Source: Patescibacteria group bacterium
GTDB lineage: Bacteria; Patescibacteriota; Minisyncoccia; Phycocordibacterales; UBA9973
Reading direction: 5' to 3'
NCBI GenBank assembly: GCA_040384805.1
Contig: JAZKIP010000001.1
Span: 133,864-197,863, forward strand
Length of the DNA stretch: 64,000 nucleotides
The translations under genes and the position numbers were made by a program. The notes beneath the pieces were generated by a model, which did not search any database, was not told the DNA's origin, and saw only the letters and a list, made by a program, of their open reading frames with translations. Of the stretch, positions 29,278 to 51,264 are shown one piece after another (position 1 is the first letter of the stretch; every line of letters begins with the position of its first letter).

Positions 29278-29775
29278 TTAATATTCTCCGACAATCAATC
29301 CCCCTGCTTCGTTTCTTCCTAGCCGTTTTTTGTCTTTGATATAAAACAGTGTGTCGTATGGTCGCCTTTTACAACACAAATAGTGCTCATCGGCTGCGTT
29401 GCGGTGTGCCTCTTGTTCAAGCGCAGTGAAATAGTATGCCTGTCTTCTGTCGAGCTTTTTAATGAGCCGTGCATAAGCATATTCAAGAATAAACAACACC
29501 CATGCTCCGATAATGAATAATTCCAGTTGTTGCTGAATATGAATAGTCTCATGACGTATCAATTCTCTATGATTTCGCGTATCCGCACGGACAAAAAGAA
29601 AAGGATAGAATGTAATCCCCATAGCATTCGATCCGAGAGAGATAAGTCTCCCGAGCCTCCGGACGACCATGTCAGATGTCACGATCCAGTAATACCCCTT
29701 GAACTCGAATTTCATAGCTTGATTATACCAGACAAGCTTTGCTTTTCTGTCGATTCTTTGATAGTATAAATCCAT
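29278..29775 (-). CDS. Putative HExxH zinc metallopeptidase-like protein. Start placed at MDLYYQ.
   Basis: HETIH (HExxH) motif in RNHRELIRHETIHIQQQLEL, followed by hydrophobic helices. The ORF track extends the N-terminus through the tandem 36-bp repeats to 29865. Family not assignable from the sequence. Confidence 0.4.
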   Translation of the reverse strand: MDLYYQRIDRKAKLVWYNQAMKFEFKGYYWIVTSDMVVRRLGRLISLGSNAMGITFYPFLFVRADTRNHRELIRHETIHIQQQLELFIIGAWVLFILEYAYARLIKKLDRRQAYYFTALEQEAHRNAADEHYLCCKRRPYDTLFYIKDKKRLGRNEAGGLIVGEY

Positions 29776-29865
29776 TCCGGAGTAGTTGAAATGCGAAGAT
29801 ATGCAGCATATAACTACTCTTGATGTCGTATTCCGGAGTAGTTGAAATGCGAAGATATGCAGCAT
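29774..29865 (+). repeat. Two perfect tandem copies of a 36-bp repeat that begins with the tRNA-Asn 5' end (ATTCCGGAGTAG)
   Basis: ATTCCGGAGTAGTTGAAATGCGAAGATATGCAGCAT at 29774..29809 and 29829..29864. The first 12 nt equal the 2 nt before tRNA-Asn plus its first 10 nt. Confidence 0.7.
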
Positions 29866-29967: not shown

Positions 29968-30039
29968 TCCGGAGTAGCTCAGCGGTAGAGCAATCGACTG
30001 TTAATCGATTGGTCGCAGGTTCGATCCCTGCCTCCGGAG
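29968..30039 (+). tRNA. tRNA-Asn (anticodon GTT)
   Basis: TCCGGAGTAGCTCAGCGGTAGAGCAATCGACTGTTAATCGATTGGTCGCAGGTTCGATCCCTGCCTCCGGAG. Anticodon loop CTGTTAA. Confidence 0.85.
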
Positions 30040-30046
30040 CATAAAA

Positions 30047-30781
30047 CTAATTTTTTAAACCCGTCCACTGTATCAGGCTGACTTTCCAATCAGTAAAATC
30101 ACTATTTATTTCAACTAAGTAAGACACAGGATGATTATTCCCCAAACATGTAACTGAATAGTTTTGTGCGCCATCTGATTTTGTAGATACTAAACTGACA
30201 CAATATATGCTGCCGAATGGATGCTTACCATGAAAATTTTGATCTACTTTCCGTGGATGCCATTCTCCTGATCCATTACTAAATACAAAAACGGCAAGAT
30301 TTTTATTTTTTGCATATCCAGGATGCTCGGTATCCTTTTTCACCTTTTTATTTATTGCATCAATTATGAGCTCATCTGTAGTTAATAGTGTGTTCGTATT
30401 TGGAGGATTCATTGCAATGACATGCTCAAATAAATAGCCTTTTTTGGTCTGTTTGTTCATAATTATTCCATCACCTCCTTTGATTTCCTGGAATGTAAAA
30501 ACATCTCCATGAATTTCATTCAGCACAGCACACATCAACCAGTTCACCCATGCTTCTCTTGGTCTCATATCAAAACTGTTTCCATCATCAATTCCGATTC
30601 TATCTGTTTTTTTGGGTAAATTATTTCCATCAATCAAAAATGGTCGTCCTTTCATATCGGCACTTTTTACCATTGATTCAAGCTCTTTAAGAGTAGTTTT
30701 TAAATCCCTTATTCGATAACCAATTTTGTGCACAGTCCGGTCTTCTTCGGCTGAATCATTTGGTGTAGTATGTCCTGCCAT
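30047..30781 (-). CDS. Hypothetical protein (244 aa), first gene of the tRNA-Asn island
   Basis: ORF only. No integrase-like motifs. Confidence 0.4.
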   Translation of the reverse strand: MAGHTTPNDSAEEDRTVHKIGYRIRDLKTTLKELESMVKSADMKGRPFLIDGNNLPKKTDRIGIDDGNSFDMRPREAWVNWLMCAVLNEIHGDVFTFQEIKGGDGIIMNKQTKKGYLFEHVIAMNPPNTNTLLTTDELIIDAINKKVKKDTEHPGYAKNKNLAVFVFSNGSGEWHPRKVDQNFHGKHPFGSIYCVSLVSTKSDGAQNYSVTCLGNNHPVSYLVEINSDFTDWKVSLIQWTGLKN

Positions 30782-30823
30782 AAAATGATTTTACCATTTT
30801 TCATTTGTTTTGTGTCAAACTCT

Positions 30824-31000
30824 TTCGAATATCCTCCCACGTTTGGAGCTATTAAAATTTTAAGCCCTTAGCGGGGCTTGTAATTTTTTAGCTCCGGAGG
30901 AGTAAGGCAATTTCTTGCCTTACGTCAGGGATCGAAAGATTGGCAATGTTTCGGTTACAAAACTGCCAATCACGCGCAGTCAGCGCGATTCCCTGCCAAA
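30824..31000 (+). ncRNA. Structured repeat element A (~175 nt): tRNA-3'-end-like hairpin, long hairpin, conserved core, two covarying hairpins
   Basis: Shares the 48-nt core GCTCCGGAGGAGTAAGGCAATTTCTTGCCTTACGTCAGGGATCGAAAG with element B. Two downstream helices differ from B by compensatory changes. The core is an antisense copy of the tRNA-Asn 3' end split by a hairpin insertion. Confidence 0.45.
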
Positions 31001-31120
31001 ATTCTATGAATGGAAAAGGTGTACTGATCCTGTAAGGATCGATTCCTAGTCAATTACCCGTTGTAGACGAGATCTCTCCTTCTATTAGTATAAGTTCAAA
31101 CCTGTGATATAATTTTAATT

Positions 31121-31372
31121 ATGCAGGAACAACTTCCAAAGAAAAAATATACACTTGAAACTATTCCCAAAGATGTCGCAACAAGCGCTCATACATATTT
31201 AAGTGCTATTGCGTCAGGTACAGCTTCAAATGAGGAAATAAATTGGCTTATTGATAATATAGAACCTAAAGCCATTAAAGATTTATCCCGTCTAAATGAG
31301 TATCTTTCTGAATCAAAAGCTCTTGAAGAAATTATAAAACGGAAATCGCTCCCACCTAATTTTTTTGACTAA
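31121..31372 (+). CDS. Small hypothetical protein
   Basis: 83-aa ORF between structured elements A and B. Confidence 0.35.
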   Translation: MQEQLPKKKYTLETIPKDVATSAHTYLSAIASGTASNEEINWLIDNIEPKAIKDLSRLNEYLSESKALEEIIKRKSLPPNFFD

Positions 31373-31400
31373 GTAATTTGACTATCCTCGATAATAGCCA

Positions 31401-31572
31401 TTCGAACATCACCCCACGTTCGGAGCCATATAAAAAACCGCACTTTCGTGCAGTTTTTTATATGGCTCCGGAGGAGTAAGGCAATTTCTTGCCTTACGTC
31501 AGGGATCGAAAGTTTGGTGATATTTCGGTTACGAAATCACCAAACACGCCCTGTAAGGGAGATTCCCTGCCA
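31401..31572 (+). ncRNA. Structured repeat element B (~170 nt), paralog of element A
   Basis: The 48-nt core is identical to A. Helices TTGGTGA..TCACCAA (B) versus TTGGCA..TGCCAA (A), and CCCT-GTAA-GGGA (B) versus CGCGC-AGTCA-GCGCG (A). Long hairpin GAGCCATATAAAAAAC...GTTTTTTATATGGCTC. Confidence 0.45.
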
Positions 31573-31611
31573 TATGGTATATTCTAAATATATTCGATAC
31601 AATACATTTGT

Positions 31612-32100
31612 ATGACTGATATATCTACTCTTTTATCGCTTAAACAAATTTGGATTCTTTCTCCACTTGCCCAAATTGTTATTATGGTTGTTTTGTATAT
31701 TATAACTGGCTTTACACAGTTACCTTTCTACAAAAAAACTGGTAAGCTCTTTTATAACTATCCTCCAAACTCTTTCCTGATTTTTGCTCCCATATATGAA
31801 GAAGTGATTTTTCGAGGAATTCTTCTTGTAACATTTACAAATTTATATGGGCTAGTATGGGCAATAATCTTGCAATCAGTTTTATTTGGTCTTTGGCATC
31901 TACGATCACTTCTTTTTATGTCGCCTAAAAGAGTTACGATTCAAGTCCTCTATACAGGTCTTATTCTAGGGCCACTATTTGCCATTATTACTATCTGGGC
32001 TGGAACCATCTGGATAGCGGTTATCCTGCATTTCTTAAACAATTTCTTAGCTTGCGTAACCCACAGAGAATCCCAAGAGTTGCTTAGTGCACCAAAATAG
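31612..32100 (+). CDS. CPBP family intramembrane metalloprotease (CAAX protease/Abi-like)
   Basis: EEVIFRG motif 1, FGLWH motif 2, and HFLNNF motif 3 in TM helices. Confidence 0.65.
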   Translation: MTDISTLLSLKQIWILSPLAQIVIMVVLYIITGFTQLPFYKKTGKLFYNYPPNSFLIFAPIYEEVIFRGILLVTFTNLYGLVWAIILQSVLFGLWHLRSLLFMSPKRVTIQVLYTGLILGPLFAIITIWAGTIWIAVILHFLNNFLACVTHRESQELLSAPK

Positions 32101-32105
32101 TCACT

Positions 32106-32129
32106 CAAGCATCGTCCAAGTTCGGAGCA
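32106..32129 (+). repeat. Hairpin-repeat family copy (partial, right arm only)
   Basis: CAAGCATCGTCCAAGTTCGGAGCA, immediately after the stop of ORF 31612. Confidence 0.4.
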
Positions 32130-32142
32130 TCATAAGTTATCC

Positions 32143-32772
32143 TTATTTATTAAGGTTATTTTTTCTACTTAAGAATAATTTAGAATTAGGATTATCATAG
32201 TAAGTTTTACATGCATCTTCAAAAACTTCTTGGAAAATTTCTTTTACATAAACAGAACTCTTGGCGATAAACTCTTCGTCTTTTTTACAAAATTGTTCAT
32301 AAGTGACACCAAAACTTTTATAAGGACGCCAATTATCAATATCTCCCATGATTATTCCTTGCATCTTGTCCACACTCCAAACAAAAAGTGCCTCTTCATT
32401 AAGTTCTTCATAACTATTTAATGTTTCAGTAAAATCCTTGAAGTCACGAAATTCATTACCTATCTTATCTAGTTCAAGACTCTCGCGTTCTTTTTTAAGA
32501 TTCTTTTCTTCTTTTCCCGCATAGGTATTTACATCGGACTTTAAGCCTCGCTCTGAAAAATCATGTATTAATGCGTATTTTAATATTTTTTCTAAATTTA
32601 GAGGCGGCTTCACCGTTTCATAGATCTTCCAACAAAGCATCGCCAAAGAAAAAGAGTGTTCTACTACATTTTCATGACGCTCAATTCCAGGAACACTATG
32701 ATTACGTTCGACCTTCATTATTTCCAAAACCAACTGTTGAATCTCGCTTAATGAAGTTAGGTTAGATTTCAT
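32143..32772 (-). CDS. HD-domain phosphohydrolase-like protein
   Basis: H...HD metal-binding signature: ENVVEHSFSLAMLCWKIYE ... YALIHDFSE. Confidence 0.55.
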   Translation of the reverse strand: MKSNLTSLSEIQQLVLEIMKVERNHSVPGIERHENVVEHSFSLAMLCWKIYETVKPPLNLEKILKYALIHDFSERGLKSDVNTYAGKEEKNLKKERESLELDKIGNEFRDFKDFTETLNSYEELNEEALFVWSVDKMQGIIMGDIDNWRPYKSFGVTYEQFCKKDEEFIAKSSVYVKEIFQEVFEDACKTYYDNPNSKLFLSRKNNLNK

Positions 32773-32803
32773 AACTCTATTCTATCATACTCATCCGAAC
32801 ATC

Positions 32804-32830
32804 GTCCCAGGTTCGGAGCAAATTTTTGAG
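32804..32830 (+). repeat. Hairpin-repeat family copy
   Basis: TCCGAACATCGTCCCAGGTTCGGAGCA. Arms CCGAAC/GTTCGG around loop ATCGTCCCAG. Confidence 0.5.
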
Positions 32831-32897
32831 CCATATAATTGAATGGTTATTTTTTCTATTTTAGCGCAAATTCGAACTCGTGATACAATAAATATAT

Positions 32898-33431
32898 ATG
32901 GGAAAATCTAAACCTCAAAAAATAATACACGGTACAGGAATGGAAACCGTTACATTCAGACAGGTAGAGATGTTTACAGAGATGGCAAACAAGGTTTTTG
33001 AAGAGCAAAAAAAAGAAATTTTAGCCAAACTACCTTATGCTGAAGTTCATCATATTGGCAGCACAACTATACCAGGTTCAATAACAAAAGGAGATCTAGA
33101 TGTTAATGTAAGAGTTGAAAAAAAAGATTTCAATACGGCTATTGAATCAATGAAACAAATGTATGATATAAATCAGCCAGAAAACTGGAGAGGAGGTTTT
33201 GCAAGTTTCCAGACTGATACACTAGAAATAGATTTTGGAGCTCAGTTAACTATTATAGATTCAGAAGAAGATGTTTTTTTAAGAAACAAAGCTGTCTTGC
33301 AATCTCATCCTGAACTTGTTGAAAAGCTGAATCAAATTAAATTAAAATATGAAGGTAAATTAATGACTGCATATAGAAAAGAAAAGTATGAGTTTTTTAA
33401 ACAAATTGAATTCCAAAAACAAGACAACTAA
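32898..33431 (+). CDS. GrpB (UPF0157) family nucleotidyltransferase-fold protein
   Basis: HHIGSTTIPGSITKGDLDVNV matches the GrpB signature HVGSTSVPGL.AKPIIDI. Confidence 0.55.
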   Translation: MGKSKPQKIIHGTGMETVTFRQVEMFTEMANKVFEEQKKEILAKLPYAEVHHIGSTTIPGSITKGDLDVNVRVEKKDFNTAIESMKQMYDINQPENWRGGFASFQTDTLEIDFGAQLTIIDSEEDVFLRNKAVLQSHPELVEKLNQIKLKYEGKLMTAYRKEKYEFFKQIEFQKQDN

Positions 33432-33482
33432 CATTTAATTTTCTTTAAGTTTTCTGCTTGTCTATGCTTGTCTAAAAGGGCT

Positions 33483-33510
33483 TTCCGAACATCCTCCCAC
33501 GTTCGGAGCA
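33483..33510 (+). repeat. Hairpin-repeat family copy (consensus-like)
   Basis: TTCCGAACATCCTCCCACGTTCGGAGCA. Confidence 0.5.
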
Positions 33511-33616
33511 AACGAAAACCGCTTTAGAAATAAGGAAATTTTTGTGACCTTAATAGAAGTTTGAACCTAGTGATATAATACACTTAGGTTCTATTATTAA
33601 TTATAAAATAATATTT

Positions 33617-33802
33617 ATGAGAAAACTTAAATGTAAAGATATAAACCCAACTACAACATGCAATTACGAAGCTACTGCTGAGAGTGCTCAAGAGGTAGCT
33701 CTAAAAATGATAGAACATGCAAAAATCCACCATACAGCCGATGTAGAAAATATGACAGACGGAGAAATGATCAAAGCATTTGAAGCCAAAGTACATGAGT
33801 AG
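33617..33802 (+). CDS. DUF1059-like small protein
   Basis: 61 aa. MRKLKCKD...C....E.....HAK.HH pattern. Confidence 0.4.
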   Translation: MRKLKCKDINPTTTCNYEATAESAQEVALKMIEHAKIHHTADVENMTDGEMIKAFEAKVHE

Positions 33803-33835
33803 ATAAAGAGTATTTAATTATTAAATTAAAAAAAC

Positions 33836-34213
33836 ATGAAAACAAATAGTAAAAAATATGTTGATGGTTTTGTTATCCCGATAAAAAAGAAAGATCTAGC
33901 AGCTTACAAGAAGATGGCAGAATGGGGGGCTAAAATATGGAAAAAGAACGGTGCATTGGAGTATTTTGAGTGCGTGGGAGATGATTTAAAAGTACAAAAA
34001 GGCGGGGGACAAGGCTTTGCCAAACTTGCAAAGCTCAAACCAAATGAAACAGTAGTTTTTTCATGGATCGTATACAAATCTAAGGCGCATCGCGATCAGG
34101 TGAACAAGAAAGTAATGAGCGATCCTAGTATGAATAGTTTCGACCCCTCTACGATGCCATTTGATATGAGGCGTTTTGCTACTGGCGGGTTCAAACCAAT
34201 AGCGGAAGCCTAA
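33836..34213 (+). CDS. DUF1428 (YbaA-like) protein, paralog 1
   Basis: KYVDGFVIPIKKKDLAAYKKMAEWGAKIWKKNGALEYFECVGDDL ... VVFSWIVYKSKAHRDQVNKKVMSDP...MPFDMRRFATGGF aligns with E. coli YbaA along its full length. Confidence 0.65.
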   Translation: MKTNSKKYVDGFVIPIKKKDLAAYKKMAEWGAKIWKKNGALEYFECVGDDLKVQKGGGQGFAKLAKLKPNETVVFSWIVYKSKAHRDQVNKKVMSDPSMNSFDPSTMPFDMRRFATGGFKPIAEA

Positions 34214-34232
34214 TAAATTAAACTGTTAAAGT

Positions 34233-34263
34233 TCTTCGAACTTCGTTCCAAATTCGAAGCCAT
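34233..34263 (+). repeat. Hairpin-repeat family copy (diverged)
   Basis: TTCTTCGAACTTCGTTCCAAATTCGAAGCCA. Confidence 0.4.
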
Positions 34264-34490
34264 TACCCAATAGGGATTTGCCTGCTCTCTTTTTACAAGG
34301 TGTAGAATTTTCTTGTCGAAAAAAATTTTAATTTCCAAAATTGACTTATATATAAAACCATGCTACTATATGTTTTATAAATTAGTTCTTTGATAGATGG
34401 TTATTTATTGTTTGTTTTATTAAGTTCCTTCTGTTTCTTTAAAGAATTAGAAGGAGCTTAATAAATCTCTAACAATTAAAAAAACCAAAG

Positions 34491-34850
34491 ATGAAACAAG
34501 CGATTTTAATTATTGCAATTGCAAGCCTTCTGTCTTGTACTTCTGACATCCCCCAAACCACCCCGGAACCTGGGGCTGTTAGCAGCATAAAGCTGCAATT
34601 CGAAGACAATACCGTCGACTATTCGACGGATGAAAGTTTTCGTAAATTTAAGGTCGGCGATAAACTGACCGTTCAGCGGTCAAGTGATGGATATTCATCC
34701 TCTGAATGGGAAGTGTCCTCATCTCCCATTGTAAGGGATACTGTCACATGGGCTCCTTACTTAAAAACCTTCCCAGAAGCAAGCATATACGCGGGGCATA
34801 CATACCGGGAAGAGAGGGCCTACCGTAAGGCCGTAATAGTTAAAAATTAA
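34491..34850 (+). CDS. Putative lipoprotein
   Basis: MKQAILIIAIASLLSCTSD lipobox-type signal. It is preceded by a ~110-nt leader homologous to the one before ORF 36297. Confidence 0.45.
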   Translation: MKQAILIIAIASLLSCTSDIPQTTPEPGAVSSIKLQFEDNTVDYSTDESFRKFKVGDKLTVQRSSDGYSSSEWEVSSSPIVRDTVTWAPYLKTFPEASIYAGHTYREERAYRKAVIVKN

Positions 34851-34911
34851 GACCTGGGTCTAAACTCAAGGCTGATACTTACGTATCAGCCTTTTTTATT
34901 TCTTTAAAATA

Positions 34912-34943
34912 CCATTCGAACATCCTCCTGTATTCGAAGCTAC
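34912..34943 (+). repeat. Hairpin-repeat family copy (diverged), preceded by a terminator hairpin at 34869..34898
   Basis: CCATTCGAACATCCTCCTGTATTCGAAGCTA. Confidence 0.4.
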
Positions 34944-35286
34944 CTATTGACTTATATGATGAAATATGTTATTATATAAGTAATAATAATTCATTTTTTA
35001 CACGGTTTTTGATTACATAAAGAGATGACTTTAGGGTCTTTAAGGAAGTTAAAATCATCTATTTATAATAACCCAAAAAACTAAGAAATGAAAAAAATTT
35101 TTGTTTTTGTTCTTCTTGTAATTATGTTGACTTCTTGCGCAACAACCAAAAAGGATTGCCAGGGGGTTAAACATTATAAGCAAAAAGGCGGATTTTACAT
35201 GTAAGCCGCAGCAAAGCTATCTGGTTGTTTTAATTCCAGATAGCTTTTCTTTATTCACAATCTATAAATCATTCTAAATTTATCTC

Positions 35287-35631
35287 TTACAATCTCTTTT
35301 TAGAAAGTTTACCAAGTACATACTTTTGCGAAGGGCTTATCGGCTTATCTGTTCGGTGAGTACACCCTATCCAGCAGCACGGGCGGCGCTTCCCTTCTGC
35401 AAGTTCCGCAATAACTCTTTTGACATGTTCTTTTCTCGTCTCTTCGCTCTTGACCGAGACAGTCCAGCAGATCCACTCATTGCGCGCAAGCCGCGTAATA
35501 TCTTCCCACGCCGCAAGAGCCTTCCTGGAAGCAGTAAGAGCCTTTCGCAAATCCTCCGGTAATGCATGCGCCGTACCACTCGAAATTCCTTTTGTAGGCA
35601 TATAATTATAATAACATATAAACAAAAGCAT
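35287..35631 (-). CDS. YdeI/OmpD-associated family protein-like
   Basis: LPEDLRKALTASRKALAAWEDITRLARNEWICWTVSVKSEETRKEHVKRVIAEL resembles the PF13376-type pattern. Confidence 0.45.
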   Translation of the reverse strand: MLLFICYYNYMPTKGISSGTAHALPEDLRKALTASRKALAAWEDITRLARNEWICWTVSVKSEETRKEHVKRVIAELAEGKRRPCCWIGCTHRTDKPISPSQKYVLGKLSKKRL

Positions 35632-35697
35632 TATTGACTTACTTTAAGACATGTTAAAATGAGTAGGTAGTTGATTATAAATTTATAAAAAAATAAC

Positions 35698-36087
35698 ATG
35701 AAAACAAATAGTAAGAAATATGTTGATGGATTCGTTATCCCTCTTAAGAAAAAAGATGTTGCAGCATACCGCAAGATGGCAGAATGGGGAGCAAAAACGT
35801 GGAAAAAGTACGGCGCGCTCGAATACTTTGAATGCATTGGAGATGACTTGAAAGTGCAAAAGGGTATGGGGCAAGGGTTTGGAAAACTCGCGAAATTGAA
35901 GCCCGATGAAACTGTCGCCTTTTCATGGATCGTCTATAAGTCTCGCAAGCATCGCGATGAGGTTAACAAGAAAGTTATGGAAGAAATGAACAAACCGGCA
36001 AACAAGAAGAAATACGAAGACCAGCCTATGCCAATGGATATGAAACGGTTCACGTATGGCGGATTTAAACCGATAGTTGAAGCTTAG
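35698..36087 (+). CDS. DUF1428 (YbaA-like) protein, paralog 2
   Basis: ~75% identical to the protein from 33836..34213 over the N-terminal 100 aa. Confidence 0.65.
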   Translation: MKTNSKKYVDGFVIPLKKKDVAAYRKMAEWGAKTWKKYGALEYFECIGDDLKVQKGMGQGFGKLAKLKPDETVAFSWIVYKSRKHRDEVNKKVMEEMNKPANKKKYEDQPMPMDMKRFTYGGFKPIVEA

Positions 36088-36296
36088 TAAATTAAGCCCG
36101 TAAGCTCTTCAAAGACGCATCTTCGCGTTCATATATAAATTATTGACAATTTATATATTTTATATTACTGTAAACTACAGTAATAGTTCTTTGATATTAT
36201 CAATTTAGTTGTTAGATTTTATTAGGTTCTCCCAGTCTCTATAGGGAAACTGAGAGAACTTAATAAATAATTTTACTAACAATTAAATATTTCAAT

Positions 36297-36734
36297 ATGA
36301 AAAAAGGTAATTTTTCCATATTTTTTGTCATTGCAATTTCTATGTTTTCATCCTCCTGCCGGTTATCAGAAAAAAGAAACAACGAAAAAATAGGAGCAGC
36401 AAGCCCGGAAGCAGTGGCAATAGATACTCTAACAAATTCGGAAATTGAGGCTGCTTACAGAATTCTCCCTCTTGATCAGCAATTAATACTATGGAGAATT
36501 TCAACTGTGACCGATCCTGAAGATGCTTATCAGATATATTTACATGCTTATGTGAATCGTATGAGTACAGAAGTCGAAGACATAGCTTATGCAAAATGGG
36601 AAGAATTGATGGTCATCAAAATCGACACTATGACTGATCCTGAAGAAGTTTACCGTATTTACTTGGATCTTTACGGAGAGGTCATTGAATCGGCAGCGTA
36701 TCAAAGGTATAAAAAATTAGGAGGGAAAAATTAA
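36297..36734 (+). CDS. Putative lipoprotein with an internal repeat
   Basis: Signal/lipobox FFVIAISMFSSSC. Duplicated motif TDPEDAYQIYLHAY / TDPEEVYRIYLDLY. Confidence 0.45.
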   Translation: MKKGNFSIFFVIAISMFSSSCRLSEKRNNEKIGAASPEAVAIDTLTNSEIEAAYRILPLDQQLILWRISTVTDPEDAYQIYLHAYVNRMSTEVEDIAYAKWEELMVIKIDTMTDPEEVYRIYLDLYGEVIESAAYQRYKKLGGKN

Positions 36735-37239
36735 ATGCATTTAACCAATAATCAAAAGCCACCCTTATCCGGTGGCTTTTTTATTTCTGATCGTATGGAA
36801 AGTTATGTAGTGTGTATCCCTTTTCTGTTCATTACGGGCAGAAATACGGTCTAAAAGATATGCACTAAGCTGCTTTGGAGATATCGCACCAAGAGAGATC
36901 TATGGTGCTCGTACTCTACTGTCATTCAAAACAGAGAAAAGTTCTTATCCTCTAAGGATTTTTCTCTACTGTGACCAACACTTTGGTTTACTTAGGCCCG
37001 GAAGCTGAAGGGATTTTTAATTGTGCTGTTGCTGATGTTGCAAAAGCAATTGCCATGGCGAATAAAAACATTTTTTTCATTTGTCAGAATTTTAGGTATG
37101 ATAAAAAAGTTAAATATTCAATTCTTTTAAGAAGACCATAACAATGGTAATATGTCAATATACTGTTGCCGTCACATTATTTTCTCATATTATAAAAGCC
37201 GGGTCATATGACCCGGCTTTTATATACATAAATTAACAT

Positions 37240-37725
37240 TTAGTGGGCATGGGCTCCGTGACCGTCATGGCCGCGAGCAGTCAGTGCGCGAGCAATAATG
37301 ACAACAGCTAAGATGAGAAGTATGACAAGCAGCCACTGCCAGATCGAACTCGGCATAAATCCGCCCGAACCTCTGATAGAAAGCGCTGTTAACTCGTTTC
37401 CTGAATTCTGGCTCTGAGTTGTCACGACCGGCGGCAAACCGATCGGATTGGTCACTGTCGTAACCGTTGTTTCTTTTGGAAGAGGCTTTACCGGCTGGAT
37501 GACAGTTGTTGTCGTTGTTGTCGCATGTGTTGTTGTCTGCGTCGGCTGATTGCTAGCAGGCGTTGAGGTATATGATATATCCTCTCCAATAGGAATGACG
37601 GTAAAGGCGGGCTTTGGAGGAATTTGAGGATATGGGATATACGCGCTGGCAGATACAGTCTGGGCACTTACAAAGGCAATCGCAAAAGCGCTTAAAGATA
37701 TTAAAATGTATTTAAGGTTATTCAT
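37240..37725 (-). CDS. Secreted Thr/Pro-rich protein with a C-terminal TM anchor and a His-rich tail
   Basis: Signal peptide, a TTTHATTTTTTV low-complexity stretch, a C-terminal hydrophobic helix, then RGHDGHGAHAH. Confidence 0.45.
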   Translation of the reverse strand: MNNLKYILISLSAFAIAFVSAQTVSASAYIPYPQIPPKPAFTVIPIGEDISYTSTPASNQPTQTTTHATTTTTTVIQPVKPLPKETTVTTVTNPIGLPPVVTTQSQNSGNELTALSIRGSGGFMPSSIWQWLLVILLILAVVIIARALTARGHDGHGAHAH

Positions 37726-37879
37726 AAGAGGTATTATAGCATATAATATACATACTTGTCAAGTATCCCTGACATGTGTTTTCTATGAGAAATAAGGCTC
37801 AAAAGCAACATTATTATAGGTAATTTAGAAATAGAGTATAATACATACTATTATATCTAATATTATTCATTATATTATC

Positions 37880-43976: not shown

Positions 43977-44390
43977 ATGAAATCAGATTTTGAATCTATT
44001 ATTCATGTTATGAAGACCAACGGAGTTGGCTTTATAAAATCCTTTTTTTCTGAAGACTCGTCTTTGGATGAAAAACCTTCTATCCTAAAGGAAAATTTCA
44101 TAACTATCAAATTCTCCGATGGCAAGGAAAAGCTAGGATGGCTGATACTTACAGGAGATGACTATATCAATCATCTGATTACGCACATAAATGATTCTGA
44201 AAAAGAAGCCAGGGCAATGGTTACTGGGCCTGATTATACAACATATATCCGGCTCCGTAGCATACCGTACGAACCGACGAGCAAGAGAGAGAATATCTGC
44301 CATATAGATATTCTCTTAAAGCATCTCGATAAAGGTATCGGAGAAGCAATCATAACCCCAAGCCTTGAAAGCAGGAACGATTTCAAATAG
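43977..44390 (+). CDS. Hypothetical protein
   Basis: 137-aa ORF with no recognisable motif. Confidence 0.4.
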   Translation: MKSDFESIIHVMKTNGVGFIKSFFSEDSSLDEKPSILKENFITIKFSDGKEKLGWLILTGDDYINHLITHINDSEKEARAMVTGPDYTTYIRLRSIPYEPTSKRENICHIDILLKHLDKGIGEAIITPSLESRNDFK

Positions 44391-44457
44391 TAACCAAAAC
44401 AGCATCCTTTAATACTCCTGAGCATTATGCGCAGGAGTATTTTACAATGAAAGTCTC

Positions 44458-44567
44458 ATTTGTCGATAATATCTATTCACTGTTATAATGACCCAATCAT
44501 GGATTCAAAGTTTATTCACCTCCACACTCATTCCCACTATTCCCTCCTCGACGGATTGTCTAAAATC
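44458..44567 (+). repeat. Left 110-bp direct repeat: a copy of the dnaE promoter plus the first ~27 codons
   Basis: 108/110 nt identical to 57504..57613, including the TTGTCG/TTGTCA -35 box, a 17-nt spacer, the TTATAAT -10 box, and ATGGATTCAAAGTTTATTCACCTCCACACTCATTCCCACTATTCCCTCCTCGACGGATTGTC. Confidence 0.9.
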
Positions 44568-44654
44568 ATCATTAATAAAATTTATCGCCTTTGTACCCAG
44601 AGAAAATTATTGCCTAACTATCGAAAATCCAGCTTATTCTTACGATGCATATGA
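44460..44654 (+). pseudogene. Truncated duplicate of the DnaE N-terminus (first ~35 aa, then unrelated tail)
   Basis: MSIISIHCYNDPIMDSKFIHLHTHSHYSLLDGLSKI is identical to the start of ORF 57506. It diverges after the repeat boundary. Confidence 0.8.
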
Positions 44655-44776
44655 GTAAGGCGATTTAGATTGTCATAGGAAAATGAAGTAACATTTTGCC
44701 CGCTAACTGATAGCCAATACACATTCATAAATATGAACAAAATAAACCGCATGACAATCTTTTTTACTATTCCAAT

Positions 44777-45229
44777 CTAATAACTTTTAAAATACTCAAA
44801 AGTCATTTTCTTTATTATTTCAGCGATTGTGAGGGCATTCCTAATAAATTTTATCCTGGAATTTATTTCTCCATCGGAATCCCAGTTGTCTTTGTTTCCC
44901 CATATGTGCCTCAAAAGCTTCTCTTTGAATTCATCCAATTGGAGACTCTTTGCATCCTTTTTAAACTGCAATTTGATTTTAATTCTCTGATTAAGAAAAA
45001 TATCAAATCCGAAAAATGGGCCAACAGTTCCTACTTTATGGATTGCTATTATACTAAATGAGTCTCCTTTGCTATCCACAATTTTAGCATTCTCAAAATA
45101 TAATTTCCCCTTTTTTGTACATACTGTTAAATCACTGTCATTTCTAAAAAATGCTATAACTTCTTTGCCAAAACAAATTATAGGATATTCAAAACTATTT
45201 TTAGTCGTTTCGTCCATAATTGTTACCAA
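44777..45229 (-). CDS. Hypothetical protein, between the left boundary repeat and the first 37-bp array repeat
   Basis: 150-aa ORF only. Confidence 0.35.
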   Translation of the reverse strand: MVTIMDETTKNSFEYPIICFGKEVIAFFRNDSDLTVCTKKGKLYFENAKIVDSKGDSFSIIAIHKVGTVGPFFGFDIFLNQRIKIKLQFKKDAKSLQLDEFKEKLLRHIWGNKDNWDSDGEINSRIKFIRNALTIAEIIKKMTFEYFKSY

Positions 45230-45297
45230 TACTTTTAATTATATATAGTCCAGTTTTTAAGTTGCACAACCTCCTTTTAACGACACTAGTATGCAAG

Positions 45298-45911
45298 TTG
45301 TAATACAAGTAATGTTCGTTTCTTGATGACGATTTTCTTATTTTATATAAGCTGAATTTTCTTTGAATAGTAATGGCTTTTGTTATATTTCTTAGATAGT
45401 AGATTGCCCCATTTCCCCATCTTTTTTTATTACTTTCAGCGTCAAAACCAATTATCCCAAACTTTACGTTGTAATCCACGGAGACATAATAGTAGTAATA
45501 ATAGTATTCATGATTGCCAAGGTCTTTCAATTCAAATGTTAGCCTGAAATCTGTTTCGGAATCTCCTTCTTTCTTTTGCGATTTTAAGTATTCCTTAATT
45601 GCTTCAATTTTCTTTCTGCTCTTGTTTTTAGACAAATTTTTGTGATTGTAAATATCACAGACATATCTTGCTGAAACAACCTCTTGTTTATTTTTTTCTT
45701 CTAGAATATTGCGATTTGCGTGATTATTGATATTCGTCGCGATAGTACTATAATTTGCAGGGTTTTTTAATTTTCCTTGTGGCGGGTTATCCTTAAAATA
45801 GTCACGTAACAAGCGAACAACTTCTTTTAAATCTGTAGTGGAATACAGTTCCGTTTTCCGAACGCGGGCTGTAAGTTTCTTATATATATTAGGATCAATG
45901 GTTTTTTTCAT
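45298..45911 (-). pseudogene. Spacer-1 gene fragment, C-terminally truncated at the repeat junction
   Basis: ORF 45201..45911 reads through repeat 1. The tail translated from the repeat, LHTSVVKRRLCN, recurs in every ORF that crosses a repeat on the minus strand. Confidence 0.4.
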
Positions 45912-46827
45912 GAGTTCAAAATAGAAAATTGTGAAGATTTTTGTGAACTTTTTTTAAAAAATGTGTATGTCTCCGTTAACATGATCTATAGAAATGGTGG
46001 GAATTTTACCGCGATGGTAGCTAATAAAAAAACCCACCAGTTTTTTACTAGTGGGCCATCATCGGAAGGAACAGTATTCCGAGATGTAGCCTATAAGGTT
46101 GTTCAAAGCAACCAAGTGGCGTTCCTTTATTATACTGATTGTCAGTATAATAGCAACGTTATCTCTGTCTGTTCCAAATTAAACATGTAAAATCTATGTT
46201 TTATGGAACAGTATACATCCTTAAGATTCTCTGAATTAAGCGACGCAATTCTTGCCGGCTACAAGCATGATTTTGTAATACAAGTTAGTGGTACGCTTAA
46301 ATGCCTCTCAAAACCGGGTAAAGTTTATTCTCCTGATGAGGTTGATATAAGAGTCATTACTTCTTTGAAGAAGAAGGCTAGCCTTCTTCTTATTACTACC
46401 AATGATGGATTATACAAGGGAACGTCGGTGGATTATTGGGAATATTAAGTAAGGTCTAAATTTATTATCCTAAATAAGATTAGTTGCACAACCTCCTTTT
46501 AACGACACTAGTATGCAAGGTAATAATTTTTTTTATTTATAACATCATTGAGACATTGTAGAACAGTCTATTATTCTTCTCTTCACATTACGGAGAGCCA
46601 TCAGTAAAAAAAACCATCAACATTTGTTGATGGTTCACCCGTTCGGTAACAGCTTACCGAGAGATTATTTTACATAGTGGTGACACACTACGTAACGTAA
46701 TGATAATCTATCACTTATAGGTTATTTGTCAACTCTTTGTAGCCTGTTCCGACCATATCTGTAAAAAATATGGTTTATGGAACAATATAAGTTGCACAAC
46801 CTCCTTTTAACGACACTAGTATGCAAG

Positions 46828-47517
46828 GCTTATGATCCAGGAAATAAGTTCTCAATCCCATTTCAGTATTCAGCCTGTGGAATAGGAGTTGACACAAGCA
46901 AAGTCAAAAACTTCAAGAAAAGCTGGTCACTCCTCTTTGATGAAAAATATAAGGGCAAAATCAGTATGTTAGATGATATTCGTTATGGAATGGTTCCGGC
47001 ATTGAAGACCCTTGGCTATTCGCTAAACACAACTAACGAAACCGAATTAAGTCACGTTAGAGATTTATTGTTAAGGCAAAAATCTTTGGTCCGAGCCTAT
47101 ACTAGCGATACATATATTGATCTTCTCAAGTCAGGGGAAGTCTGGATAGCGTATGGATACACTGGGGATATTTATCAGGCGATAAAGGAAAATTCTAATA
47201 TTGTTTATTTTATTCCAGAAGAAGGGTCTGCGCTTGCAGTAGAAAGCATGTGCATCCTGAAAGGAGCTAAAAATAAAAAAACGGCCGAACAATTTATGAA
47301 TTATATTCTGGAACCTCAAGTAGATGCGGATATAGTAAATCACACTCAATATGCAACTCCAAATGATTCGGCTAAACAGTTTATTAACCCCAAAATTCTG
47401 AATGATGAGAATATTTTTCCAGGAAATTCAGTTTTTCTGAAAAGTGAGTATATACGAGATCTTGGTAAAGCAAATCTGCTATATGATAAACTATGGACCG
47501 AAATAAAGACCAAATAA
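46828..47517 (+). pseudogene. Spacer-3: N-terminally truncated PotD/PotF-like polyamine ABC substrate-binding protein fragment
   Basis: C-terminal ~230 aa of a spermidine/putrescine-binding protein fold (…GEVWIAYGYTGDIYQA…NYILEPQVDADIVNHTQYATPN…). It starts directly at the repeat junction with no start codon. Confidence 0.5.
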
Positions 47518-47610
47518 CAGTTTTTCCTTTGACAATTCAATAAACTTGCATCGTATTAGTTGGCGTAGTAAAATCTAATATTATTAGAGATTATAGGACT
47601 TCATGCCAAG

Positions 47611-48495
47611 ATGAATGAAAAATATAAGCTGAGAAATATCGAGCCCGGAATTTATCGCCAGCGAGGTATAGCCGAATTTCGCATTCTTGAATCCTCGATT
47701 TCAAAACGGGTATTTATAAAATACCTCAAGGAACTTTCCCGAAATTTAGGAATGCAACCACATCCAGAATTGCCAGAGCCAGTTATTACTTCAGCTTCTG
47801 GCTATACTTTACAAAAGCATGATGGCCTTGAAGGATTTCTATTCTGGCTAGAATCAGGACTTCACGCTTATTACTGGAAGCGTCCACAGATAATAACTGT
47901 GGACATGCATTCTTGTAAACCACTTATTGAAGAAGCTGTTGAAAATACAAGTAGAAGTAACTTTAGTATTGTTGAGTACAATTATGTAGACCTAGTTTTA
48001 AAAGAAAAGAAAGACAGTCAAAAAGTAAGGACCAGAATATATTCAATATCCCGAAAAGGCCTAATCGCTTCAAAACGCATCAAAAAAGATGAGTATATTT
48101 CTGGGTATTATGGTGAAGTTCACGAAATAAGAAGGACAAAGAAATTTTATAGAGCAGAATTTAAGAATGCAGTTCAATTCGCCGAACATAAATGGCGGGA
48201 ACCTGTCTTAAATAGTCTTGCACAAAACATTAACCATGCGTGTGTACCAAACTGCGGCATTAAAGGTATGTTTGATATAGTTGCCATTAGAAATATTGAA
48301 ATTGGTGAAGAATTATTGTTAGATTATGCAATGACAGAGGATTCCGACTTGAATATCCCTAAAGAAAAATGTTTATGTGGCACAAAAAAGTGCCGTGGAA
48401 AAGCAGTTCCTTATAAAAAGCTACCAAAAGAAGTCAAAGTATTATATAATAATTACATCTCCGAATGGTTAAAAAATAAGTATTATATCAACTAA
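47611..48495 (+). CDS. SET-domain protein (lysine methyltransferase-like), complete gene inside spacer 3
   Basis: NHACVPNC (SET NHxCxPN motif), EELLLDY (ELxxDY motif), and the post-SET Cys cluster CLCGTKKCRG. Confidence 0.65.
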   Translation: MNEKYKLRNIEPGIYRQRGIAEFRILESSISKRVFIKYLKELSRNLGMQPHPELPEPVITSASGYTLQKHDGLEGFLFWLESGLHAYYWKRPQIITVDMHSCKPLIEEAVENTSRSNFSIVEYNYVDLVLKEKKDSQKVRTRIYSISRKGLIASKRIKKDEYISGYYGEVHEIRRTKKFYRAEFKNAVQFAEHKWREPVLNSLAQNINHACVPNCGIKGMFDIVAIRNIEIGEELLLDYAMTEDSDLNIPKEKCLCGTKKCRGKAVPYKKLPKEVKVLYNNYISEWLKNKYYIN

Positions 48496-48796
48496 CATTA
48501 GCCATATCAGTTCCCCTGCATATAATATAGTTTGAAAAAACGCTAAAGTTTTGAAGGCTCAAGCAGCTGTATATTCGCGGGTTATTAAATCTGCAAAATC
48601 GTGAGGTTTAAGCAATACCATGTTAAAATTGAATGGACAAAGCTTTCCCTGATGAAATTTATAGCGTTTGTTCCTATCAAGAACTATTGCTTATTGATAC
48701 AAGATCCAACTCATATATTTGGAGTAATTGCAGGCACAGAGATTATGGAATTTTTAACCGTTGCACAACCTCCTTTTAACGACACTAGTATGCAAG

Positions 48797-49227
48797 TGAT
48801 CCACGCAACGGCCCATGAAAGTCGCTTGAATAGGACATCGATCTTGGAAATGTCAGAACATGGTGCAGACCCATACAGTATCGAAGAATTGATCGCAGAA
48901 ATGGGAGCCTCATACCTCTGCTATCATGCCGGCATTCTTCCGACCCCAATAGGAGACTATTTCGCCTACCTGAACGGCTGGCTCTGGATAAGCTTCGGCA
49001 AGATACTCACCTTGTTGTTACAGCAAGCGTATATGCGCAGCGGGCGGTTGACTACATTCTGGGGTATAAGGAGGCAACCAGCGAGAAAAAAGAGGAAGCG
49101 GAAGTGCCCGAAGCCATGGATGGGGAATAGGAGACATCTATACACAAAGCCCGGACTTTTCCGGGCTTTTTATAATTACTATTTCTTTTTTACTTCGTTA
49201 TATTTCAAACAAAAATTACAAGTATGA
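48797..49227 (+). pseudogene. Spacer-4: 3' fragment of an ArdC-like antirestriction/zincin gene, starting mid-gene at the repeat junction
   Basis: Begins ...IHATAHESRLNRTSILEMSEHGADPYSIEELIAEMGASYLCYHAGI (the HExxH...RLNR ArdC C-terminal metallopeptidase motif). The first 258 nt are 100% identical to 51706..51963 in spacer 6, then the two copies diverge. A terminator hairpin AAGCCCGGACTTTTCCGGGCTTTTT follows. Confidence 0.55.
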
Positions 49228-49256
49228 AAACAAGTATTCTGATTAACAATTTCATT

Positions 49257-49502
49257 CTATTCTTTATCTCTTATTTCTTGTCTTGCTCTTGAAAGATTTT
49301 CAAAGTAGTTCCCCTCAAAAGTTTCAGACACAATTTTCTCTAATGATGATTCAATATCAAAAAGAATTCTTTCTTCTGCTTGATCTTCAAATAGCAACGG
49401 GTGTTCTTTCTGATTGAATTTGGTTAACCATTCGAGCAGAACGAGAGCTTCATTACTACTTAGTTTTAGGAATATGTTTTTATTGTCTTTTATAACTTCC
49501 AT
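49257..49502 (-). CDS. Hypothetical small protein inside spacer 4
   Basis: 81-aa ORF. Confidence 0.35.
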   Translation of the reverse strand: MEVIKDNKNIFLKLSSNEALVLLEWLTKFNQKEHPLLFEDQAEERILFDIESSLEKIVSETFEGNYFENLSRARQEIRDKE

Positions 49503-49738
49503 AATTTATAGACCTCCGTGTTCAAGAACATTTTTTAATTGTACGGGATTAAGTTTCCAGCCGCTAATAAATTGTCCCGAAGGACTAGAGATAACATTAA
49601 GACCAGTATTTGGATTGAGATAGTGTATTACTGATTGACCTCTATATGTTCCATTAATAGCTTGAACACCTGCGGAATTGTTGCACAACCTCCTTTTAAC
49701 GACACTAGTATGCAAGAAATGGCGAGCAAATAAAAATT

Positions 49739-50380
49739 TTGGGCGTAGTGGCTCTTCAAAGAAATAGATCAATAATTAAAAAAATAGATAGAGTAATATC
49801 TACCATTTGGGACATAGCCAAGAAAAATTCTACTCCTAATGAAAATATAGTTATCCTGGAGATTTCAGAAGTTACCGGGATATCTCCAAAAGAAGTTAGT
49901 CTTTGTTTGCACCTCATTTCTGATTATGGTCAGTATGTTACGGGGAGTATAAGCGAGCAGAACACAAGGCTCTACACCGCAATTCAGATAAACGAAGATA
50001 TAAATGTATACTATAGGTATAGCGAATTTCCTGAGGCAAGTTCTCTCCTTGCATTGGATGAAATTAAGAATCAGACGCAACCCCAGGAGTATTTTAAGGA
50101 TGATGAAATTCTGACAATCGGTTGGCAATTGGATAGATTAAGGGAAGAATTTAAAAACGGCATATGTGTATTACAAACCGGACAGGAAATCATCTGGACG
50201 GATAATCAAGAAGATATCGCAGAAATGAAAATTCAGCTTTCCAAATTATCGAAGAAAAACTGGTTTCAACTCTTTATTGGTAAATTATTTTCAAAAGGCA
50301 TTGATAAGCTTTTCTTTGAACCTCTGTTTGAAAAGATTAAGAATTTTGTTGATCCGGCAATAAGTGGATTACTGAATTGA
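49739..50380 (+). CDS. Hypothetical protein inside spacer 5
   Basis: 213-aa ORF starting 23 nt after repeat 5. Confidence 0.4.
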   Translation: MGVVALQRNRSIIKKIDRVISTIWDIAKKNSTPNENIVILEISEVTGISPKEVSLCLHLISDYGQYVTGSISEQNTRLYTAIQINEDINVYYRYSEFPEASSLLALDEIKNQTQPQEYFKDDEILTIGWQLDRLREEFKNGICVLQTGQEIIWTDNQEDIAEMKIQLSKLSKKNWFQLFIGKLFSKGIDKLFFEPLFEKIKNFVDPAISGLLN

Positions 50381-50544
50381 GGCTGCGCTTAATGCGATCC
50401 GTTACAATTTGCTGTTTTCCGTCCAATGATAAACTGTGTTTTCAGTGGCTTCGACAACTTTACATAATTACTTATGCCGGTTCTTCTGCTTCCTGTCATT
50501 TCTTCCCCGCTGCTGAAGAGAATTTATGTAGGGATTAGCAATCT

Positions 50545-50919: not shown

Positions 50920-51264
50920 AACATTATTTTTTAGAGTTTGATAATGTCGGAACAGCCTGCGGAGAGGTTGACAGATCAGTCTATAAATGACAGAATGTCA
51001 TTATGTTACGTAGTGGTGGTACACTATGTAAAATAATCTCTCGGTATGCTGTTACCGAAGGGGTGAACCATCAACAAAATGTTGGTGGTTTTTTTCTTTG
51101 CTAATAGTCTATCCCAATAAAAGAAGAAACAAATGGCTGTAATCCACTGTCTTAATGCTGTTATAAATAAAAAAAATTATTACATTACTGTATTAAAAGC
51201 TGCGTTAATGGGAAACCGCTTAAAACCGTTGCACAACCTCCTTTTAACGACACTAGTATGCAAG

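Follow-up and report, generated by a model that had tools for sequence, protein, structure and literature searches.

The stretch examined here (the window: 64,000 nucleotides of contig JAZKIP010000001.1 from a Patescibacteria group bacterium) carries, directly behind a tRNA-Asn gene, a row of seven small units of 0.58–0.81 kb, each of which closes with a copy of one short element. Comparison with loci and contigs of other genomes, designated below by L-numbers, revealed that this 27-nt element and about 20 nt to its left form a conserved sequence of about 50 nt in Patescibacteria (candidate-phyla-radiation, or CPR, bacteria), and that its opposite strand encodes the last 12–17 residues of a large serine recombinase (LSR), (L)LRTW[D/E]DVR[M/I]x[I/L][I/L].. 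followed by a stop codon. We consider it probable that the island is a row of small units laid down at tRNA-Asn by LSR-mediated recombination, with the repeats representing orphan LSR tails and P-type (attP-like) half-sites. The tRNA and the repeat-bounded part of the island are laid out as follows, the strand of a site copy being that of the encoded tail.

29968–30040, + strand: tRNA-Asn(GTT), called by ARAGORN and Rfam (72.7 bits)
30020–30040, + strand: last ~21 nt of tRNA-Asn, TTCGATCCCTGCCTCCGGAGC, the putative B-type (attB-like) left half-site
30041–30803, − strand: body of unit 1, with a 244-residue open reading frame (ORF; 30047–30781) of unassigned function
30804–30850, − strand: site copy 1, P-type half-site and orphan LSR tail (nhmmer E=1.2e-8)
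30851–30889, + strand: start of unit 2 (fold z=−7.0 for the unit start), terminator-like hairpin
30890–~31045, + strand: start of unit 2, decayed pseudo-tRNA-Asn module D4a (pseudo-tRNA hidden Markov model, HMM, E=1.4e-10)
31121–31372, + strand: cargo of unit 2, 83-residue ORF of unassigned function (ORF list, Pfam scan)
31381–31428, − strand: site copy 2, reading ..FFIWLRTWGDVRMAIIEDSQIT and a stop (nhmmer E=2e-12)
31421–31470, + strand: start of unit 3 (fold z=−9.4 for the unit start), hairpin with 23-bp arms (inverted repeat I5)
31464–31572, + strand: start of unit 3, second decayed pseudo-tRNA-Asn module D4b (repeat family D4, HMM)
31612–32100, + strand: cargo of unit 3, CPBP/Rce1-like membrane protease (Pfam PF02517, 6e-18)
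32104–32130, − strand: site copy 3, degenerate (3' half, nhmmer E=0.0065)
32143–32772, − strand: cargo of unit 4, HD_3/YfbR-like phosphohydrolase (Pfam PF13023, 1e-18; PHROG dATP triphosphohydrolase, 5e-5)
32774–32821, − strand: site copy 4, reading ..LKNLLRTWDDVRMSMIE and a stop (nhmmer E=2.9e-14, the strongest of the window copies)
32898–33431, + strand: cargo of unit 5, GrpB (Pfam PF04229)
33464–33511, − strand: site copy 5, reading SGFRLLRTWEDVRKALLDK.. and a stop (nhmmer)
33617–33802 and 33836–34213, + strand: cargo of unit 6, DUF1059 and DUF1428 proteins (Pfam)
34223–34262, − strand: site copy 6, diverged, reading WLRIWNEVRRTLTV and a stop (nhmmer E=4e-6)
34491–34850, + strand: cargo of unit 7, 119-residue putative lipoprotein (ORF list)
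34899–34941, − strand: site copy 7, most distal and diverged (nhmmer E=1.2e-4)

The succession of tRNA-Asn and repeats had been outlined in a preliminary description of the sequence, and tRNA calls together with pattern and profile searches find it at the positions given there, with the same arms and conserved loop, a pitch of about 0.68 kb, and all copies in the orientation of the tRNA (7/7 on the + strand). Six of the seven copies announced are full, starting at 30824, 31401, 32794, 33484, 34235, and 34915; a search allowing ≤7 mismatches to the earlier consensus and a loose hairpin pattern return the same six. Four starts had been misplaced, by 10, 1, 2, and 3 nt (32804, 33483, 34233, and 34912), and the remaining copy is degenerate: it was found at 32104–32130 by a profile built from 187 copies of other genomes, which re-finds all six full copies, and combines a scrambled 5' arm with a 1-nt deletion, its minus strand reading MLRTW before a frameshift. 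Start-to-start spacings of the seven copies are 577, 705, 688, 690, 751, and 680 bp. No further copy occurs in the 64-kb window, the profile finding none to the right of 34941, and dinucleotide shuffles of the window give an expected element count of 0. A dispersed repeat of the repetitive extragenic palindrome (REP) or bacterial interspersed mosaic element (BIME) type, or a generic terminator, was rejected because no copy lies outside 30.8–34.9 kb of the window and because copies cluster downstream of tRNA-Asn in other genomes.

What kind of sequence is the element? On the + strand it presents a stem of 6–7 bp with G·U-type wobbles and one compensatory C–G to T–A change, and it folds together with the following hairpin and D4 repeat at z −7 to −9, as might a hairpin terminator, a processing site, or a cis-regulator acting at the RNA level. 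The pattern of conservation speaks for coding on the other strand instead. Among the eight positions left free by the search pattern, only 0, 9, and 15 vary, and all three are third-codon positions; the unconstrained 20-nt left flank shows period-3 conservation, with T at the second positions of hydrophobic codons and then A at those of charged ones. Reverse frame 0 contains no stop for three codons past the motif and a peak of stops at 6–7 codons. Counted from the L, the coding frame stops 12–17 codons on, by way of TAA, TAG, and TGA, while the other frames stop at once. In L079 (547 residues) and L040, the motif frame runs into a protein with Resolvase, Recombinase, and Zn_ribbon_recom domains. 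The stem itself consists of the codon pairs CGA-ACN and GTT-CGR, the compensatory change in the window is synonymous, and the 10-nt loop is conserved as codons, such that the hairpin and loop previously taken for the nature of the element are explained by opposite-strand coding of the C-terminal tail at the 3' end of LSR genes. Moreover, the orientation of the element follows the tRNA and not the adjacent gene (it lies upstream of − genes and downstream of + genes), and Rfam 15 holds no match to the repeat or to the D4/pseudo-tRNA module: between 29500 and 37900, at the gathering threshold and at E≤10, only the true tRNAs are credible, and spurious microRNA and leader matches fall on hairpins. 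The RNA-level reading was dropped when the variation turned out to fall on third codon positions of the opposite strand, and we regard it as very improbable.

Most copies have an in-frame stop within 0–40 codons upstream of LRTW and are therefore orphan 3' fragments. In the window, site copy 1 reads LQTWEDIRKSLTQNK and a stop, and site copy 7 reads LRIQEDVRMVF and a stop, each with an in-frame stop immediately upstream. Independent minus-strand genes for small leader- or toxin-like peptides ending ..LRTWDDVR.. would share the strong coding signature and the conserved stop placement, and a TTG or ATG does precede some copies. However, many copies, window copies 1 and 7 included, combine a stop right before LRTW with the lack of a start codon; conservation begins abruptly at the junction; and the same peptide is the C-terminus of recombinases of 500 residues. 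The stops directly upstream and the missing start codons led us to abandon independent small ORFs, to which we now give scarcely any credence.

The C-termini of intact recombinases indicate how such tails become detached. The LSR family comprises 1944 matches at E<1e-20, and we classified the C-termini of the best 120 of these. Short tails that are tRNA antisense, ending ..LLRG, LLGR, or LLRR before the stop, occur in 68 of the 120, and 16 run into ..QGSNLRP.., ..DSNL.., or GIEPT, which are longer stretches of translated tRNA antisense; together, tRNA-antisense C-termini account for 84/120. A native tail of about 30 residues (..LLAWKDxLRTxNW..FPFPSVSLxQI..) is present in 18, the shorter LRTWDDVR-type tail in 10, and tails of other kinds in 8. 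Where the ..LLRG ending falls at tRNA-Asn, the stop lies in the T-stem, and in L122, L134, and L141 the serine recombinase gene ends inside tRNA-Asn on its antisense strand. In L122 the LSR overlaps tRNA-Asn(−) by 13 nt (TTG CTC GGG AGG TAG), and an orphan native tail lies 7.9 kb from the LSR at the other end of the element (tblastn 7e-15), which carries HTH_17, HTH_36, and DUF5659 genes and whose two left halves both end in CGAGC. The complementary state is found in L209 and L210 (ENA ERZ869925 and ERZ869929), contigs from two samples that are 100% identical circular permutations of one 8984-bp molecule; with a 55-nt terminal overlap, L209 closes into a circle that has no tRNA and an intact LSR tail. 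An insert bounded by attL and attR and a free circle with attP thus both exist. The LSR gene crosses its own recombination site, with the body of the gene on the cassette-start side of the junction after ..GGAGC and the tail on the other side, so integration at tRNA-Asn detaches the last 12–33 codons and leaves them to mark the distal junction. Autonomous elements of the family measure 8–9 kb or are prophages, some members being prophage integrases.

Besides the LSR with its complete native tail, the 8984-bp circle codes for an SNase-domain protein and unknowns; it is a candidate for the free form of an integrative element or for a plasmid of a CPR bacterium. Contexts of identical LSRs (P0001, P0037) showed the same neighborhood in all samples, with no polymorphism seen. 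In L153 (3664–5058) a serine recombinase reads towards a tRNA-Ser, and weak matches to the pseudo-tRNA model lie beside tRNA-Ser/Val in the window (3208–3292, − strand) and downstream of tRNA-Glu in relatives (L146 4204–4262, L178 5709–5817); related recombinases may use other tRNAs likewise.

The geometry of the two kinds of site is that expected of LSR partners. If half-site positions are numbered from the G of the common GC, the repeat and the tRNA share AGG at positions 2–4 and CC at positions 12–13 in register, and the distal TTCGA box occupies positions 21–25 in the repeat and 16–20, the T-loop, in the tRNA. A distal zinc-ribbon-domain (ZD) motif lying 5 bp nearer the center in attB than in attP is a hallmark of LSR sites (PMC3783163); here the TTCGA boxes are offset by 5 bp, and identity at the presumed crossover is confined to (G)GAGC. 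The proposal that the element is a diverged copy of the tRNA-Asn 3' segment is not supported by this alignment, which has in common only GGAGC and the TTCGA box, the box being 5 bp further out in the repeat. The acceptor sequence of the tRNA varies among genomes and the repeat keeps GTTCGGAGC, so crossover must take place at or to the right of (G)AGC. It probably falls at the GC of GGA-GC (tRNA positions 73–74), judging from the sites themselves: the attP of L209 is palindromic around GA[GC]TC, with this GC as the dyad center. The sequences 3' of the tRNA (..GGAGC[CA]) are of the same kinds as those 3' of the repeat (..GTTCGGAGC), and one unit start follows tRNA-Asn in L009 and the repeat in L093; as left junctions, then, the repeat and the tRNA 3' end are equivalent.

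The element is widespread. A scan of 185,579 species genomes with a degenerate pattern matched at least 118 stretches, nearly all from Patescibacteria/CPR, among them Paceibacteria, Nomurabacteria, Kaiserbacteria, and metagenome-assembled genomes (MAGs) labeled 'Saccharibacteria', often with 2–5 copies per 8 kb; a scan of viral contigs with the motif gave 0 matches. The locus counts given from here on refer to the matches listed. Among these, nhmmer finds 266 copies in 117 loci, none of which has mixed orientation, at a median spacing of 855 bp (interquartile range 641–1270 bp). The arrays are anchored at tRNA-Asn, which is present in ~30 of ~110 loci, other tRNAs being rare; in 23 of 25 tRNA-Asn loci the repeats lie downstream of the tRNA on the same strand. 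From the end of the tRNA to the first repeat the median distance is ~765 bp, the first unit usually being small.

The units behave as modules. Whole units recur across genomes among unrelated neighbors, and homology ends at the junctions: L006 and L072 share a unit at 75% identity over 707 nt, end to end, L010 and L092 one at 94% over 327 nt, and L057 and L086 have a unit of ~530 nt in common. In shared unit pairs the bodies are 73–83% identical and both flanks 58–62%, which is background. In many genomes, a conserved unit start of ~60 nt, composed of an A-rich segment, a hairpin with a T-run, ..TAGTAGAAGTTCGAACC, and TGnTATAAT, precedes unrelated cargo. Some of the gene families of our island recur in such arrays elsewhere: YdeI homologs occur in 15 other repeat-bearing loci, a DUF1428 homolog in a repeat-bounded unit of L042, and a homolog of the 119-residue lipoprotein in the array of L101.

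That the content at this tRNA varies among relatives, as had been anticipated, is confirmed. In relatives whose GDH is 71–80% identical, the order mem161(−)–GDH(+)–PurH/PepM1 is kept and none of the island genes of the window is present. In L139, tRNA-Asn, 98.8% identical to that of the window, follows mem161 directly, and in the relatives L134 and L141 a serine recombinase reads into this tRNA-Asn. The site is therefore occupied differently in different lineages. The segment comprising tRNA-Asn and the island (~29735 to ~37190) is inverted in the window relative to L134, L139, L141, L103, and L049, in all of which a mem161 homolog is directly followed by tRNA-Asn.

A further component of these arrays is D4, a 115-nt repeat that follows site copies 1 and 2, its two copies in the window being 85% identical. 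D4 belongs to a pseudo-tRNA-Asn family with ~25 members in the loci compared (e.g., L065 3403–3542, L110 1295–1445). In a full-length member, the 5' strand is the reverse complement of the 3' end of the host tRNA-Asn, giving an acceptor-like stem; a 9-bp hairpin with compensatory changes at several pairs and a T-stem-like helix follow, the latter switching from U–A to C–G together with the host tRNA and enclosing an insert of 70–100 nt, often with a GTAA-loop hairpin; and the 3' end is identical to that of the host tRNA-Asn. The 5' part of D4a likewise matches the tRNA-Asn 3' end in reverse complement, with a 25-nt hairpin interrupting it. Both copies in the window are decayed, having no 3' acceptor strand. 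The module always stands after the hairpin right behind tRNA-Asn or a repeat junction, and another unit start follows it. The module may be a source of additional B-type half-sites or may act as an RNA. In L119 (~2560–2600), L085, L101, and L077, the repeat before hairpin and pseudo-tRNA modules is replaced by a variant left half-site, TTCTGAACTTGTCCACNAGRGGGAGC, which suggests further LSR/site subfamilies.

Based on these comparisons, we propose the following model for the growth of the array. The repeat would be the P-type left half-site and the tRNA 3' end the B-type half-site of the same recombinase, and a unit would have the form right half-site/hairpin/promoter, cargo, terminator, and P half-site. 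Since the tRNA and the repeats are followed by sequences of the same kinds, the array can be read as attB (tRNA joined to B') followed by attR-type junctions (P joined to B'). Most economically, autonomous LSR elements would integrate at tRNA-Asn, and excision through alternative P junctions, more distal or internal, could pick up or leave single units. After a pick-up, the P half of the unit would supply the tail of the LSR, which would explain why the orphan tails keep a coding signature. Movement of single-gene units is inferred here from sequence comparison. Of the interpretations offered in the preliminary description, serial integration at the tRNA stands in that the repeats are copies of a recombination site bounding inserted units, but the enzyme belongs to the serine and not the tyrosine recombinases. 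The serine recombinase is the missing integrase, absent from the window; in other genomes it occupies sites of this type. In LSR-bearing units the LSR holds the position that the ORF of unit 1 occupies here, and this 244-residue ORF has no match in Pfam, PHROGs, PADLOC, or PDB.

Several observations weigh against such a model. No cognate recombinase is encoded with the array: tblastn with two LSR queries matched only tails of 13–17 residues in the 64-kb window, and a close LSR is present in only 2 of ~117 repeat-bearing 8-kb loci. Right half-sites are heterogeneous. Those of motif-type sites have A-rich or hairpin flanks and no evident inverted repeat of the left half, a box resembling the reverse complement of P appearing only if a hairpin of ~31 nt is discounted, and a hairpin of ~31–37 nt often sits where the right half should abut. 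In L079 and L213 an LSR is joined to the repeat inside the chromosome, an attP-type junction unforeseen by the simple model. The only pairs that canonical LSRs recombine are attP with attB and attL with attR, and serial growth of an array needs extra assumptions. We observed neither circular single-unit forms nor empty-site polymorphism or recombination activity. A scan for promoters and terminators found no enrichment over shuffles, and the units' own promoters therefore rest on individual TG-extended −10 boxes. Finally, site quality declines weakly with distance from the tRNA (Spearman −0.25, p=0.07).

It is conceivable that each repeat is instead a scar, the attR remnant of a full-size LSR element (8–10 kb or a prophage) since deleted, and that the units were never mobile as such. 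The size of the autonomous elements fits this view, as do the lack of an LSR in the window, three degenerate sites, two decayed pseudo-tRNA modules, and the weak trend with distance, and tycheposon islands are explained likewise. Deletions of large elements would not, however, readily leave units of such tight size with intact single genes and no fragments, nor a first unit that is usually small. Whole units recurring beside unrelated neighbors, with homology stopping at the junctions, and the conserved start of hairpin and promoter-like box before unrelated cargo also argue against this view, and we consider scarring of this kind unlikely. For the window itself, the array is either serviced in trans or largely fossil, because no LSR is encoded there, three site copies are degenerate, and both pseudo-tRNA modules are decayed.

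Returning to LSR-mediated assembly of the units, we speculate that the system could serve CPR bacteria as an integron-like platform for gene capture, with tRNA-Asn or the pseudo-tRNA in the role of attI and the ~50-nt P half-site in that of attC, self-expressed units being moved when LSR elements excise and the exchange of tails tuning the activity or directionality of the enzyme. This extension is tentative, and we would not be surprised to see it fail. A regulatory role for the tail swap is likewise a hypothesis.

The low-GC island extends beyond the last recognizable site. Between 30.0 and 37.2 kb, G+C content is 31–39%, versus 44–49% in the flanks, and the distal part contains the following features, in addition to genes for a small lipoprotein and a 145-residue lipoprotein.

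34942–37190, no strand assigned: distal low-GC part of the island without recognizable sites (Pfam, G+C, nhmmer)
35287–35631, − strand: YdeI/OmdA (Pfam)
35698–36087: second DUF1428 protein (Pfam)

Pfam upholds the earlier list of genes (CPBP/Rce1-like, HD_3, GrpB, DUF1059, two DUF1428, and YdeI/OmdA). Their portrayal as defense-adjacent found no support, 0 of 9 island proteins scanned matching PADLOC, and searches of the cargo proteins in PADLOC, PHROGs, and PDB gave nothing informative. The island was correctly said to have no integrase gene, in that the LSR tblastn finds only tails there and the ORFs scanned contain no Phage_integrase domain. Exact-protein look-ups of window proteins returned nothing beyond short Logan contigs of a single run (SRR26324625), which break at the repeats. 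The DUF1428 paralogs, one inside the repeat-bounded array and the other in the repeat-free distal part, are 78% identical in DNA (33821–34117 and 35683–35979), and the Logan assembly breaks there.

Other features of the window lie outside the array proper. Upstream of tRNA-Asn, a 36-nt exact tandem repeat, ATTCCGGAGTAGTTGAAATGCGAAGATATGCAGCAT, occupies 29774–29809 and 29830–29865; its first 12 nt equal the 5' end of the tRNA plus the 2 nt preceding it, and a similar box is present once in L139, 47 nt ahead of the tRNA-Asn there. The repeat could have a promoter or regulatory function or be a trace of the rearrangement seen in the window. Two 50-nt palindromic leaders with compensatory changes (34416–34465 and 36218–36267) lie upstream of two lipoprotein genes, each preceded by a promoter-like TTGACT-17-TAnnAT site and a ..TAGTTCTTTGA.. 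box, which is also present at unit starts of L022, L048, and L101. A second low-GC region (44000–57500) encodes two MPTase-PolyVal (ArdC-like) proteins (48601–49227 and 51356–52045), a SET-domain protein (47611–48495), and Cas1 (56444–57457, − strand), which adjoins a 1075-residue ORF (57506–60733); this region may be another mobile element plus a CRISPR-Cas locus.

What is the relevance of these arrays? CPR genomes are tiny, and little is known about how they acquire genes. In Paceibacteria, Nomurabacteria, and related groups, the tRNA-Asn locus seems to be a conserved and frequent point of entry for accessory genes, and the layout is common to many CPR bacteria and apparently not yet described: we found no account of LSR/tRNA-Asn arrays in CPR bacteria in the literature searched, although such coverage proves no absence. 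If the units are mobilized as such, they would represent a second, mechanistically independent solution to cassette capture, built on a serine instead of a tyrosine recombinase, and the recombinase, if our reading is true, would be one whose own C-terminus depends on the place of insertion. In practical terms, the family is a source of many natural LSR/att pairs whose tRNA target is defined, of interest for genome engineering, and the repeat and the pseudo-tRNA module are easy annotation markers of flexible islands in CPR MAGs.

The resemblance to integrons deserves particular attention, since the preliminary description had considered an integron-like system with a non-canonical attC. A non-canonical integron, or a cluster of attC sites lacking an integrase (CALIN), would have attC-like sites served by a tyrosine, IntI-like integrase encoded elsewhere. 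The layout is indeed similar: rows of mostly single-gene units, each ending in a conserved site and all sites in one orientation, adjoin a fixed primary site; many arrays have no recombinase, as in CALINs; the cargo consists of small accessory proteins; and the AAC...GTT arms recall R''/R' boxes. Unlike attC, however, which is a folded site of 57–141 nt with R/L boxes and extrahelical bases, the element is a site of 25–27 nt with one stem, within 25–50 nt of double-duty coding sequence, and its arms TCGAAC/GTTCGG break RYYYAAC/GTTRRRY at one position. None of the 30 window ORFs scanned contains a Phage_integrase domain, and in the genomes compared the site belongs physically to a serine recombinase gene. 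A tRNA gene serves as the primary site, the units lie on both strands with promoter-like boxes and terminators of their own, and, in contrast to integrons, we found no evidence of single-strand recombination of the element. The one-orientation array of the earlier proposal thus stands, with neither attC nor IntI involved, and a non-canonical integron or CALIN strikes us as exceedingly improbable.

Staphylococcal cassette chromosome (SCC) elements, inserted by the serine recombinases CcrAB or CcrC at the 3' end of rlmH/orfX, are similar in that an LSR targets the 3' end of a conserved housekeeping gene for insertion and in forming composite tandem arrays in which some units have no recombinase genes and direct site repeats lie between units. 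They differ in target, host, and recombinase lineage; their units measure kilobases to tens of kilobases, and ccr genes do not straddle the site. Compared with well-studied LSR systems (A118/LI, Bxb1, and phiC31; PMC3783163), the recombinase found here shares the Resolvase, Recombinase, and zinc-ribbon architecture, short sites, the anatomy of attL and attR, a circular form with intact attP, and the 5-bp box shift between P-type and B-type sites. Unlike in those systems, the target is the 3' end of a tRNA, a kind of site used in mycobacteriophages by tyrosine integrases (PMC9262239); attP lies inside the integrase gene's own 3' end, with integration swapping the C-terminal tail; P-type halves occur in long arrays bounding single-gene units of ~0.85 kb; and right half-sites vary, with a hairpin often standing between them and the left half. 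A parallel to the tail swap is integration-dependent immunity of mycobacteriophages, in which attP lies inside the repressor gene and a tyrosine integrase acts (PMC9262239, citing Broussard 2013). In both cases, insertion at a tRNA exchanges the 3' end of a gene and creates a new stop at the junction, so that the C-terminus of the protein differs between the integrated and the free form, while the gene that is split is the repressor there and the serine integrase itself here.

Tycheposons of Prochlorococcus (bioRxiv 10.1101/2020.12.28.424599) resemble the arrays in that repeated integration at one tRNA pushes older material distally, most islands have no integrase, and both cargo and degenerate remnants build up. 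As expected of such islands, the array has a complete tRNA at its proximal end, and its content differs among relatives. In tycheposons, tyrosine recombinases were found in 474 of 501 cases and the separators are partial tRNA copies (bioRxiv 10.1101/2020.12.28.424599), whereas here orphan integrase tails, or P half-sites, separate units that are far smaller and more regular. The array is a member of neither the integron nor the tycheposon family, because the defining features of these families were looked for and not found. In the way it works, the system resembles an LSR integrative element joined to a tRNA-seeded accretion island, and in its look it is integron-like.

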